DNA from: a virus
Lineage: Duplodnaviria > Heunggongvirae > Uroviricota > Caudoviricetes
DNA length: 17,225 nt
Direction: 5' to 3' (one strand)
Virus record (IMG/VR): IMGVR_UViG_2537561992_000019
Of this stretch, positions 135 to 4,182 are shown one piece after another. The stretch's first letter is position 1. Each line of letters starts with the position of its first letter. The notes under the pieces are model-generated. The model ran no database searches and was not told the DNA's origin. It saw only the letters and a program-made list of their open reading frames with translations. A program made the translations under genes and the position numbers.

Positions 135-446
135 TCACTGTACTGCGGCGCGCCAGCTGTTTAATGCGCGGATCCGGAGCATCGTATGAATCCGGCAGCG
201 GAAGCCCTTCACCGTAAGCCATGGCATGGACTGCCCGGCCAGTACGATGACGTAGTACCACTCCGGCTCAGTTGCACCACTGACCACCACATCACCTTCT
301 GCTGTAATCGCCTGCATCAGGGTATAAGGGGTTATGGCCACCGGACTCCCAAACGGCTGCCAGCCCTCTTTCAGTTTGTGTGTCAGCTTTTCCGCAAGGT
401 CTGACGGCGACGCCGCCCTGACAACATCATAATGTTTAAATGTCAT
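135..446 (-). CDS. small late-region phage protein, 103 aa (possibly YdfR-like)
   Basis: ATG at 446..444 preceded by GGGAGGAA. Family assignment is by position (late operon) and size only. Confidence 0.6.
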   Translation of the reverse strand: MTFKHYDVVRAASPSDLAEKLTHKLKEGWQPFGSPVAITPYTLMQAITAEGDVVVSGATEPEWYYVIVLAGQSMPWLTVKGFRCRIHTMLRIRALNSWRAAVQ

Positions 447-489
447 TATTCCTCCCGGCCGGGATAGTGTATTAAATCAGATATGGAGT

Positions 490-534
490 GGGCTGTAGTC
501 CGGAAGCCTGAATGACACACGGGGACTACAGCCC
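490..534. repeat. 12-bp perfect inverted repeat GGGCTGTAGTCC / GGACTACAGCCC separated by 21 nt
   Basis: Read directly: 490..501 is the exact reverse complement of 523..534. Lies 44-88 nt upstream of the 135..446 gene. Confidence 0.7.
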
Positions 535-630
535 AAGAAATGAAAAAAGGCCACGCAGTTGCGCAGCCTGATAAACCCTGGTTAAAATCCACACGATAAC
601 AACACAACAATATCAGTATCTCATGCTATT

Positions 631-655
631 GCCCGAACCCATTCGGGCATTTTTT
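631..655 (+). terminator. rho-independent terminator-like hairpin (GCCCGAA-CCCA-TTCGGGC followed by T6)
   Basis: GC-rich stem with T-run on the plus strand; forms a back-to-back pair with the minus-strand hairpin at 661..684. Confidence 0.45.
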
Positions 656-660
656 ACCCA

Positions 661-684
661 TAAAAAGCCCCTCCGGAGAGGGGC
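661..684 (-). terminator. rho-independent terminator-like hairpin (GCCCCTC-TCCG-GAGGGGC followed by U5 on the minus strand)
   Basis: A-run 662..666 on plus gives the U-tract on minus; sits downstream of the TerB-like/membrane gene pair. Confidence 0.5.
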
Positions 685-808
685 ATGTTTGCATGCACAT
701 TCTTTTTCTTGTATGGTGCCGGGTGCCTCCCGGTGAATTCAGTATCAGCACCTAAATCCGCGATTATCCCATATACCTGGTTGCTGATCGCCCTCCGCAC
801 AGGGGGAT

Positions 809-1018
809 TCACCATGCAGAAGTGTTTTTAATAAACAGCAAACAAAAAAACCAAGCATTATGCAGGCTGTTTCTTTTTATCACCGGCCACAGCAATACCA
901 CAATGCCGCAGACCAGCACCCCATCCGCCAGCACCGACATGATTCTGCTGGTGAAATCCACCATCACCACCAGAAACAGCAGGAGTGCAGCCACAGCCAG
1001 GCGCAGTTTTACCGTCAC
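809..1018 (-). CDS. small predicted membrane protein, 69 aa, two hydrophobic helices
   Basis: GTG at 1018..1016 overlaps the TerB-like stop (GTGA). Hydrophobic stretches LRLAVAALLLFLVVMV and GVLVCGIVVLLWPVI. Alternative ATG start at 964. Could be a non-coding tail. Confidence 0.35.
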   Translation of the reverse strand: MTVKLRLAVAALLLFLVVMVDFTSRIMSVLADGVLVCGIVVLLWPVIKRNSLHNAWFFCLLFIKNTSAW

Positions 1019-1446
1019 AGGTGATTCTCCAGACGAAGACCCAGAACACCGGCAATCTCTTCCAGCACCTTGCGCTCTTCCGGCTCAATTTCGCCGTCTG
1101 CCTCCGCAATGGCCACCGCCACATCCAGCACATCTTCCGCTTCACGCGCATCGTGTTTCACATCCTCAATCTCGCGTAACGCGGCACGACGACCAATTTT
1201 AAAATTGGTATCCAGCTGACCGATAATAGTTGCGCTAATCGCATTAATTTCCGAGGTAAACGCAGACAACGCAGGCTGATTACGTAAGACCTGTTCGATC
1301 TTCGCTTTCTCGGATGCCTCGCATTCACCATCTGCATAGGCCACCAGGTATGCAGCGTTAATCACCGCCTGTGCCAGATCGCGTTTCTCAAACTTTTTAA
1401 TTTCCGCTGCCGCTCTGCGGGTTTTCTTTTTGAAGATTCCAAACAT
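1015..1446 (-). CDS. TerB-like (tellurite-resistance TerB family) protein, 143 aa
   Basis: True start is ATG at 1446..1444 (MFGIFKKK) with AAGGAA Shine-Dalgarno; the track ORF begins further upstream. Two ADG-x3-E style motifs (AYADGECEASEKAK, AEADGEIEPEERK) typical of TerB domains. Confidence 0.65.
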   Translation of the reverse strand: MFGIFKKKTRRAAAEIKKFEKRDLAQAVINAAYLVAYADGECEASEKAKIEQVLRNQPALSAFTSEINAISATIIGQLDTNFKIGRRAALREIEDVKHDAREAEDVLDVAVAIAEADGEIEPEERKVLEEIAGVLGLRLENHL

Positions 1447-1575
1447 CGTGACGTTCCTTTGGGTGGGTGAGCCAACGCCCGGGAGCGATCTGCCCACAGA
1501 GAAAGTCACACTGACCACTCCGTAAGCTCACCCCCGAAAGGCTCTGTGGTTGATATGCGCCGGGCGTGGCGCAGA

Positions 1576-1615: not shown

Positions 1616-1692
1616 TGGCGCGTTGTAGTGGAGTCGAACCACTGACCGATTGCTTAGAAGGCAATTGCTCTGTCCGGCTGAGCTAACAACGC
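1616..1692 (-). tRNA. tRNA-Arg (anticodon UCU), 77 nt, phage-encoded
   Basis: Hand-folded cloverleaf: 7-bp acceptor stem GCGTTGT/ACAACGC, anticodon loop CTTCTAA, T-arm GTGG-TTCGACT-CCAC, encoded CCA end. Confidence 0.9.
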
Positions 1693-1917: not shown

Positions 1918-2967
1918 TCAAACGATTAAATCCTGAACTTCCCTGACTGTCTGTTCAAAGCGTCCGGTCTCCAGCTCAACACCAATCGCACAACGCCCCA
2001 GTGCCATCGCCGCTTTTACCGTTGAACCTGAACCCATAAAAAAATCTGCAACCAGGTCTCCCGGACGACTGCTCGCGTTGATTATCTGCTGCAGCATTTC
2101 TGCCGGTTTTTCGCACGGATGTTTCCCTGGATAGTACTGCACCGGTTTATGCGTCCAGACATCGGTGTACGGAACCTGCGCCGTCACACCGAAATACCGC
2201 CGCAAATTTTTATATTCACTCAGCAGTTCCGTATACTGCCGGTTCAGCTCACTGTATGTGCTGACCAGCTGGTGGTGTGGCTTTTCCAGTTCCCCGCGCT
2301 GATGTTTTTCTGCCGCAACACGCGCAAACAACGCCTGCAATTTGTTGTAATCACCCTCGTTCGGTAACTGCCACTGACTGATACCAAACCAGTGCGAAGC
2401 CATGTTTTTCTTTCCGGTGGCTTCCGCTATCTGTTTTGACGTTATTCCCAGTGATTTACGCGCATCACGAAAGTAAGAAATCAGCGGGGCCATGACGTGC
2501 TGTTTTAGCTCGCGCCCCTGCTCCACATAGCCATCATCTTTCGGGCGATACGGTCCCTGATAATGTTCTGCAAACAGAATGCGCTCTGTTGCCGGAAAAT
2601 ACGCCCGCAGACTTTCCTTATTGCACCCGTTCCAGCGTCCGGACGGCTTCGCCCAGATAATGTGGTTCAGCACATTAAAGCGCTCACGCATCATGATTTC
2701 GGTGTCAGATGCCAGGCGATGACCACAGAACAGGTAAAGACTTCCGGCAGGCTTCAGTACCCGCCAGAACTGCGCCAGACACTGGTCCAGCCATTTCAGG
2801 TAATCATCGTCGCCCTCCCACTGGTTATCCCAGCCCTCGGGCTTCACTTTAAAGTATGGCGGGTCTGTGACTATCAGATCGACAGAGTTTTCCGGTAAGG
2901 TCTGGATAAATTCCAGGCAATCAGCGTTGATTAACTCACAACTGGATATTTTTACAGTATTAATCAT
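1918..2967 (-). CDS. orphan DNA methyltransferase, beta-class (N6-adenine or N4-cytosine), 349 aa
   Basis: DPPY catalytic motif near the N-terminus (LIVTDPPYF) and AdoMet-binding motif FFMGSGST near the C-terminus. No restriction endonuclease gene adjacent. Confidence 0.85.
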   Translation of the reverse strand: MINTVKISSCELINADCLEFIQTLPENSVDLIVTDPPYFKVKPEGWDNQWEGDDDYLKWLDQCLAQFWRVLKPAGSLYLFCGHRLASDTEIMMRERFNVLNHIIWAKPSGRWNGCNKESLRAYFPATERILFAEHYQGPYRPKDDGYVEQGRELKQHVMAPLISYFRDARKSLGITSKQIAEATGKKNMASHWFGISQWQLPNEGDYNKLQALFARVAAEKHQRGELEKPHHQLVSTYSELNRQYTELLSEYKNLRRYFGVTAQVPYTDVWTHKPVQYYPGKHPCEKPAEMLQQIINASSRPGDLVADFFMGSGSTVKAAMALGRCAIGVELETGRFEQTVREVQDLIV

Positions 2968-3627: not shown

Positions 3628-4182
3628 CTAAGCGTCAGTAAAAGAAAATGCATCTCGCATCAGTGGATACAGAATAAACTCAGCTATTCTCAGCCACATA
3701 TCTATACGATTGCGGCATGTTGCATAGCACCACTCAGGGTGAACCTCATTCAACAATTCAGCCATTTTGCGTTTACTCATCCCCCGCCCTTCGTATCTTT
3801 GCCGCAGGATATCAATCAATCCAGGATAACGTGCAAGCGCTTTACTTATCACCCCATCAATGCGTAACGCCTCTGCATCAGTACAGTGAGACAACCAGCT
3901 CTTCTGTCTGCCAGCGATCATCTCTCGCAAGAATGCTTCCAGCTCTGGTTTATCAATCCCTGACTCCCTGATTCTACGCAGGGCTTCATTGATTGCGGTT
4001 TTTGTCAGTTTTTTGGATGCCAGCAACTGATTGAACATATTTCCTGTTTTGCTACCACCTATATACGACCAACGCCCCCACATCCGTAATTTCCCCTGGA
4101 TCCAGACGGCTTCCAGCGTTTTTAGACGTAAATGCTCGCCGCTTTTGCCTGTAATTTCCGGGTATATCATATTTACGATCAC
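3628..4182 (-). CDS. putative late-gene antiterminator Q, 184 aa (GTG 4182) or 180 aa (ATG 4170)
   Basis: Assigned by position only: directly after rusA and directly before a strong terminator and the late-region island. No motif confirmed. Confidence 0.45.
   Translation of the reverse strand: MIVNMIYPEITGKSGEHLRLKTLEAVWIQGKLRMWGRWSYIGGSKTGNMFNQLLASKKLTKTAINEALRRIRESGIDKPELEAFLREMIAGRQKSWLSHCTDAEALRIDGVISKALARYPGLIDILRQRYEGRGMSKRKMAELLNEVHPEWCYATCRNRIDMWLRIAEFILYPLMRDAFSFTDA

Follow-up and report, generated by a model that had tools for sequence, protein, structure and literature searches.

A TerB-DUF3927 gene pair in the Q-to-lysis cargo slot of a Caudoviricetes sequence and its match to the tciA-tciB genes of phage P1

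Phage P1 carries three small genes, tciA, tciB and tciC, reportedly described by Lobocka et al. in 2004. According to GenBank notes and later papers, the tci genes owe their assignment to homology with terB of plasmid R478, and the names tciA and tciB are also those given in GenBank to the pair found in phage JLK-2012. Here we analyse a stretch of 17,225 nt of Caudoviricetes DNA (IMG/VR record IMGVR_UViG_2537561992_000019, hereafter the window), in which an earlier note had pointed out a TerB-like gene followed by an overlapping small membrane open reading frame (ORF), located between the antiterminator gene Q and the lysis genes. The locus almost certainly represents the tciA-tciB accessory operon of phages, which received its name in P1. 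The pair is already known, being named, annotated and very common, so that the earlier finding is accurate but ordinary; since it is annotated and named, its presence here adds nothing new in kind. What is added to the known pair are a stop-loss allele of tciB, two small RNA (sRNA) genes behind the presumed terminators, a direct equivalence with the slot of the Shiga toxin genes (stx) and the finding that TerB swaps its small membrane partner in other phages.

The organization in P1 is the same in that a DUF3927 gene comes directly after a TerB gene, its start codon overlapping the TerB stop codon, with tRNA genes and a DNA methyltransferase gene near, and in that the genes are non-structural cargo. 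The proteins of P1 and of the window are 41% (TciA) and about 48% (TciB) identical. P1 differs in having the third small gene tciC, in its junction (TGATG, an overlap of -1) and in the location of tciABC within the early, C1-controlled ban operon (GenBank) instead of a Q-dependent late slot. In the window the sRNA gene STnc100 is found where tciC would be, and no further ORF follows tciB. As tciC (PHROG 23152) was seen only in P1-like elements, it is probably not a defining feature of the wider tciAB family. In Escherichia coli E2865, which has a near-identical locus, RefSeq annotates the two products as "tellurite resistance TerB family protein" and "DUF3927 family protein", and PHROGs places both proteins in the category "moron, auxiliary metabolic gene and host takeover".

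The product of the first gene is a soluble TerB-domain protein. It matches Pfam TerB (PF05099) with 59.8 bits (cutoff 24.4, E=4e-16) over residues 26-138, PHROG 632 over its full length (1-143/143, E=5e-69) and the Klebsiella TerB structure 2JXU over residues 14-137 (E=4.5e-8), which bears out the initial assignment of the gene as TerB-like. The AlphaFold 2 (AF2) model, based on 24 homologues, is all helical (predicted local distance difference test score 86.6), and its top Foldseek match was the TerB-like structure 2H5N (probability 1.0, TM score 0.53-0.62, but with an E-value of only 0.03). No transmembrane segment is apparent from the hydropathy of TciA, as for a cytoplasmic protein; the N-terminal 22 residues carry a net charge of +7 and the remainder a net charge of -13. 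In the literature on TerB systems the domain is described as amphitropic. Matches to DUF533 (23.5 bits) and DjlA (E=1.4e-6) were both below the respective cutoffs and therefore TciA is not a member of either family.

In comparison with the TerB protein of the terZABCDE cluster (IncHI2 plasmid R478; Klebsiella, 2JXU), TciA has the same domain, a similar size and the same twin A-D-G...E motifs. The ter cluster differs in having the other ter genes and the polytopic TerC as partner, whereas in the window none of terC, terD, terE or terZ is near and the partner is a DUF3927 protein of some 50 amino acids. A further parallel in architecture may be provided by the N-terminal region of DjlA and by YebE/DUF533, in which a transmembrane anchor and a TerB-like domain share a single chain; we infer the same architecture for tciAB, split over two genes, so that the anchor is a separate polypeptide and there is no J domain.

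The small ORF downstream of tciA opens with a GTG that overlaps the tciA stop codon and runs for 69 codons, exactly as the earlier note had it. Its product matches Pfam DUF3927 (PF13064) with 60.8 bits (cutoff 25, E=1e-16), a score that takes it far beyond a chance frame, and PHROG 1470 with E=8e-30. The ORF was found conserved from E. coli to Pseudomonas phages. In a set of 24 diverse members D21 is invariant and R6, L13, F22, S28, D32 and P45 are nearly so, the conserved core comprising residues 1-50. The ratio of non-synonymous to synonymous polymorphism (pN/pS) is 0.42 in frame, versus 0.83 and 1.77 in the shifted frames. The possibility that the small ORF is not conserved, raised along with the original description, can thus be put aside. 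DUF3927 is a small family: a phmmer search with the TciB core against 1.84 billion representative sequences yielded 60 clusters at 50% identity, nearly all of 45-65 amino acids. E. coli matches that carry the DUF3927 label but cover only a small part of the query proved to be a pseudogene fragment amid insertion sequence elements. The hydropathy profile of TciB has two maxima, at residues ~5-20 and ~26-47, with a DFTSR turn between them, and positive charges are found at both ends.

The length of 69 amino acids is specific to this allele, a TGA to TGG stop-loss variant. The common E. coli allele encodes 55 amino acids, ends in ...KRNSLHNA and has TGA at codon 56; in the window and in E2865 this codon is TGG and reading continues for 14 codons. 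The exact 69-residue protein was found on 238 contigs (e.g. BAI24785.1; including that of the O26:H11 strain 11368) and the exact 55-residue protein on 966 contigs. The start of STnc100 lies 5 nt beyond the usual stop codon of tciB; the extension consequently overlaps the 5' end of STnc100, so that the 14 additional codons are read from the 5' part of the sRNA gene. For annotators this means that the length of tciB varies through stop loss and that the gene is often skipped by gene callers; it was missed or left unannotated in Klebsiella phage 5 LV-2017, in contig L279 and by one gene caller on Salmonella prophages.

The association of the two genes was conserved. Among IMG/VR loci retrieved with three different TciA queries, tciB was located directly downstream of tciA in 162/162 cases, with stop and start codons overlapping or abutting, a result that supports the pairing proposed in the earlier note. 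At 90% identity the TciA proteins of this sample group into 9 clusters, and they belong to three deep clades that share 29-43% identity with one another. The junction is of the -4 (GTGA) type in 221 of 264 loci, of the -1 type in 29 and of 0 or +1 in 6. When one genome per species in GTDB was scanned with a 3-sequence TciB alignment, 14 tciB loci were found, most of them in Enterobacterales; a full tciA gene directly precedes tciB in 11 of these and a partial one in a 12th. The remaining two are deletion remnants, one (L173) without a start codon and the other (L178) reduced to residues 8-43, with tRNA debris attached.

Of 5426 complete E. coli genomes, 802 (15%) contain at least 80% of the tciAB pair, and the genomes that have any match to the pair have it at a median of 4 places, the module being multi-copy in E. 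coli that produce Shiga toxin (STEC). The pair was also found in the phage-plasmids P1, P7, D6 and SJ46, in the lytic N4-like phages Pollock and TR2, in jumbo Machinavirus phages of Salmonella and Erwinia, and in Pantoea phage LIET2, Pseudomonas phage nickie and Salmonella prophages. Some hundreds of bases downstream of tciAB, Pollock has a group I intron (Rfam RF00028, 101 bits; L162 3055-3407). It was further observed that tciAB is located beside tRNA genes in lambdoid, P1/D6, jumbo Machinavirus and Pseudomonas nickie phages (L002, L003, L264, L265, L272, L273) and that a DNA methyltransferase gene is near in both P1 and the window; this proximity could be coincidence, or come from an insertion hotspot that the phages share or from cargo that is linked as a block.

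We also found TerB genes with other membrane partners. TciA-like TerB genes are present in 131 phage records, as against 34 records in which TciB was found by tblastn. In the Pseudomonas phages AF, Zuri, Lana, Ebordelon and Holyagarpour the TerB gene is followed by a gene for a different small protein, unrelated to DUF3927, that has one N-terminal transmembrane segment and the conserved motif C..YG.QTERET.YA.FVGCMV. In phage AF this partner gene (L266 1932-2153) is unannotated and overlaps the TerB stop codon by GTGA. The partner in Zuri is gp47 (L267 1943-2146), with relatives also in Titan-X and two Acinetobacter phages. In Vibrio phage vB_VpaP-MS02 (L270 78-1626) a TerC/Alx membrane protein gene is found directly upstream of TerB, which gives the classical pairing of TerB with TerC a counterpart on a phage genome. 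Published TerB-containing defence systems likewise pair TerB with membrane proteins. The combination of TerB and a membrane protein is thus the common phage pattern, but not a universal one: in Vibrio K479 and Pseudomonas PMBT3 no small membrane gene is adjacent to TerB.

On the minus strand the order of genes is: a Q-like DUF1133 gene, a small ORF, a DNA methyltransferase gene, a tRNA gene with a CAT anticodon, tRNA-Arg, tciAB, STnc100/AgvB and the start of a DUF1737/SASA esterase gene (Table 1). As the holin gene is outside the window, the position of the slot was taken from the near-identical E2865 locus, where the pair is located between the Q-like gene and the holin gene and the esterase gene is followed by genes for the holin, the lysozyme and a further lysis protein. 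In phage H-19B stx1AB is found directly upstream of the same sRNA block, stx1B ending 95 nt before the region homologous to window positions 450-832. Since stx1AB of H-19B has the same place relative to the STnc100/AgvB-like block, the reading of the locus as the cargo slot that holds stx in related prophages is correct. Phage Nil3 was discarded as a comparison, as its record ends just after the tRNA genes and so could not serve to show equivalence of the slot. The stx, nmpC and other lambdoid morons thus share with tciAB the position between the Q/tRNA region and the esterase/lysis genes and differ in the cargo itself; for tciAB, moreover, no promoter of its own was detected in a crude sigma-70 consensus scan of the minus strand between 1400 and 3700 (upstream of tciA and downstream of the Q-like gene), which is a weak negative, as the scan may have passed over a weak or non-sigma-70 promoter. 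In phage lambda, Q-modified polymerase is well known to read through terminators. The lack of a promoter consensus, together with the terminator-like hairpin before tciA, suggests that tciAB would be transcribed mainly by Q-antiterminated late read-through, like stx2.

Table 1. Features of the tciAB region, given in the coordinates of the 17,225-nt window; the gene pair is on the minus strand.
Feature	Position	Strand	Details and basis
tciA, 143-aa TerB-domain protein	1446..1015	-	ATG 1446, TGA 1015; Pfam, PHROG, PDB, RefSeq WP_000466957.1
tciA Shine-Dalgarno sequence AGGA	1455..1458	-	8 nt 5' of ATG; read from sequence
tciA/tciB stop/start overlap GTGA	1015..1018	-	read from sequence
tciB Shine-Dalgarno sequence GGAG, within tciA 3' end	1027..1030	-	8 nt 5' of GTG; read from sequence
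tciB, DUF3927 small membrane protein, 69-aa stop-loss allele	1018..809	-	GTG 1018, TGA 809; Pfam, PHROG, RefSeq WP_001341379.1, alignments
tciB codon 56, TGG here, TGA in common 55-aa allele	853..851	-	DNA comparison with L004
STnc100 sRNA gene	846..656	-	intrinsic terminator 684-667; Rfam RF02076
AgvB anti-GcvB sRNA gene	594..655	+	terminator 630-649; Rfam RF02702
Third terminator-like hairpin, between AgvB and esterase start	548-569	-	overlaps putative AgvB -35 region
Terminator-like hairpin between tRNA-Arg and tciA	1603-1584	-	terminator scan
tRNA-Arg (TCT), upstream neighbour	1616..1692	-	ARAGORN
tRNA with CAT anticodon	1793..1868	-	tRNA-Ile per RefSeq, Ile/Met by anticodon; ARAGORN, RefSeq
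DNA methyltransferase gene	2967..1918	-	gene order reading
DUF1133 gene with Phage_antitermQ match (Q-like)	4182..3628	-	profile match

The earlier note had described the end of the unit as a bidirectional terminator pair. Back-to-back terminator-like hairpins are indeed present, at 630-649 (+) and 684-667 (-), the scan finding 6 terminator sites in positions 400-2000 where 1.6 are expected, but they belong to two convergent known sRNA genes, and should be annotated as such. STnc100 matches Rfam RF02076 with 125.7 bits (gathering threshold 47) over the full model (positions 1-206), and AgvB matches RF02702 with 96.5 bits (gathering threshold 56), being identical to the consensus at 62/62 positions and having the CACAACA motif that mimics GcvB. 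AgvB is a prophage anti-sRNA that sequesters GcvB and aids growth of enterohaemorrhagic E. coli (EHEC) in bovine rectal mucus (PMC4104026). STnc100 is an sRNA that prophages carry in multiple copies (PMC5331693) and that was also reported 75 nt downstream of stx2B (PMC12370729); in a 2026 preprint TerB is listed among the conserved neighbours of related prophage sRNAs. Downstream of tciB, STnc100 is likewise found in JLK-2012 and in one Enterobacter locus, and it was absent from the P1, N4-like and jumbo tciAB contexts examined, so that it is part of the lambdoid backbone and not of the tciAB module. It may be either a transcript from its own promoter or a 3' product of the cargo mRNA; the homology with H-19B reaches ~832, leaving no shared promoter region upstream of STnc100. 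For AgvB a possible promoter was recognized by eye (TTGCGC-18-TAAAAT at 559-588). In comparison with E2865 the window has three single-base deletions, at ~228, ~663 and ~793, two of them in homopolymer runs. That at ~228 puts the DUF1737/SASA (nanS-p-like) esterase gene out of frame, so that a 103-aa ORF remains at 446..135, and that at ~793 shortens a stem arm of STnc100. These deletions are either sequencing errors or decay.

As to function, the arrangement of the genes suggests that tciB would be translated by coupling to tciA, the two proteins being made in a roughly fixed proportion. The positive charges at both ends of TciB point to an N-in/C-in topology, with TciB in the inner membrane and both its ends in the cytoplasm. 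There it would hold or regulate the amphitropic TciA, a partnership that may be physical, and tciAB would then correspond, as a two-gene unit, to the membrane-anchored TerB-like proteins and to the pairing of TerB with TerC. The detection of P1 TciA peptides by mass spectrometry in virion preparations (PMC9024508) indicates that TciA at least is made. As N4-like and jumbo phages, which are strictly lytic, carry the pair and P1 has it in an early lytic operon, it most likely serves the infected cell in lytic growth. There it may stabilize or guard the inner membrane, the threats being, for instance, pore-forming colicins, phage that superinfect or a membrane that fails too early. A membrane-tethered TerB module that acts in lytic growth is therefore a tentative reading, to which we would give slightly less than even credence; for identity and function taken jointly, the explanation given here is the best overall and is held with modest confidence. 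A more far-reaching proposal, which must be taken as one claim and as such is improbable, would make tciAB a general phage 'membrane guard', i.e. a TerB sensor tethered by a minimal membrane protein. In this proposal Asp21 and Asp32 would make up an oligomeric site that binds or conducts cations, the module would be used during infection by temperate, lytic and jumbo phages to keep the inner membrane permissive or to neutralize those host defences, TerB-based ones among them, that monitor the membrane or act upon it, and DUF3927, the single-pass family of the Pseudomonas phages and TerC would be alternative membrane modules for one TerB function.

Several observations weigh against the preferred reading of tciAB as a coupled membrane module. 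The 162 loci are not independent, as they fall into 9 clusters and three clades, and represent few independent observations. The AF2 monomer of TciB is a single long helix (residues 3-50, with the extension at low confidence) and not a hairpin, so that both the 'two-helix' description in the earlier note and the hairpin are expectations from hydropathy only. In the literature searched no experiment on the function of TciA or TciB was found, the name coming from homology only, and P1 tciA, tciB and tciC were non-essential in a CRISPR interference screen. STnc100 copies were found abundant and transcribed in uninduced EHEC EDL933, as confirmed by Northern blotting (PMC5331693), for which reason some transcription through the region in lysogens is possible. 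Among the 60 DUF3927 clusters mentioned above there is no natural TerB-DUF3927 fusion; the candidates, three long proteins (P0130, P0161 and P0170) and two with both domains (P0179 and P0241), were frameshift or assembly chimeras.

The last of these points, together with the existence of TerB-bearing phages such as K479 and PMBT3 without a small membrane neighbour, also favours the most serious rival explanation, in which TciB acts alone, for example as a superinfection-exclusion or lysis-timing peptide that is co-transcribed with TciA without forming a complex. A further point for it, and against the module, is phage 434 (L164 2112-3344), in which tciA is missing and tciB, with TTG as its start codon, looks intact. 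Here tciB sits behind the gene for an unrelated polytopic membrane protein of 247 amino acids (PHROG 1521) and is followed by a gene for another small putative membrane protein; STnc100 was not detected in this phage at the Rfam threshold. The case is ambiguous, this copy being the sole plausible stand-alone tciB, since the two GTDB loci with tciB only are deletion remnants. A solitary TerB gene, which the earlier note had considered damaging if found in related phages, was seen in none of the enterobacterial phages and only in the distant K479 and PMBT3. The stop/start overlap was, moreover, retained across the three deep TciA clades, and the Pseudomonas phages swap DUF3927 for another coupled membrane protein and do not drop the partner. 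We therefore consider independent action of TciB unlikely, though of the alternatives it is the one to be taken most seriously.

The RefSeq product name suggests another role, namely lysogenic conversion, in which the pair would give the host resistance to tellurite or oxidative stress. The ter tellurite-resistance cluster is where the TerB domain was discovered, and the multiple copies in STEC genomes are in line with a benefit to the lysogen. Tellurite resistance of the ter cluster, however, needs several ter genes and not terB alone, and the pair has no TerC, TerD, TerZ or TerE gene nearby, its neighbours being a methylase gene, tRNA genes, sRNA genes and an esterase gene. In addition, the pair is carried by N4-like and jumbo phages, which are obligately lytic and form no lysogen that would need protection, and the consensus scan gave no promoter of its own. 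Tellurite resistance for the lysogen is thus less likely than a role during infection, and lysogenic conversion as a whole is improbable.

By analogy, the pair could also be a counter-defence device, a phage TerB mimic at the membrane that would blunt host systems in which TerB domains survey the membrane (Bunzi, Shango or Dionysus, for example) or other abortive-infection effectors with an action on the membrane. Several validated defence systems contain TerB domains, for which a role in membrane surveillance was proposed in the literature, and the presence of tciAB in unrelated lytic and temperate phage types would fit such a role. Bunzi, Shango and Dionysus indeed resemble tciAB in having a TerB domain beside membrane proteins, but they are host-encoded, multi-gene systems with ATPase, helicase or pore-forming effectors. 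Among the PADLOC defence models none matched the pair significantly; the best hit was that of TciA to PDC-S48 (E=0.0038, 14 bits) and TciB had none. As an argument by analogy only, counter-defence would appear no more probable than lysogenic conversion. Finally, although gene callers often skip tciB (as in Klebsiella phage 5 LV-2017 and L279), the idea that the small ORF is a chance frame and not a gene appears, from its conservation, refuted for practical purposes, given Pfam and PHROG E-values of 1e-16 to 1e-30, residues conserved across genera and a pN/pS that is lowest in frame.

The preferred reading, a membrane-tethered TerB module for lytic growth, concerns a pair of genes that is present in 15% of complete E. 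coli genomes, in P1, in N4-like, jumbo and lambdoid phages and in the Shiga toxin slot, and whose function is so far a matter of prediction. As TerB domains were recently found in validated anti-phage systems, the role of phage-borne TerB modules at the membrane bears on that field.

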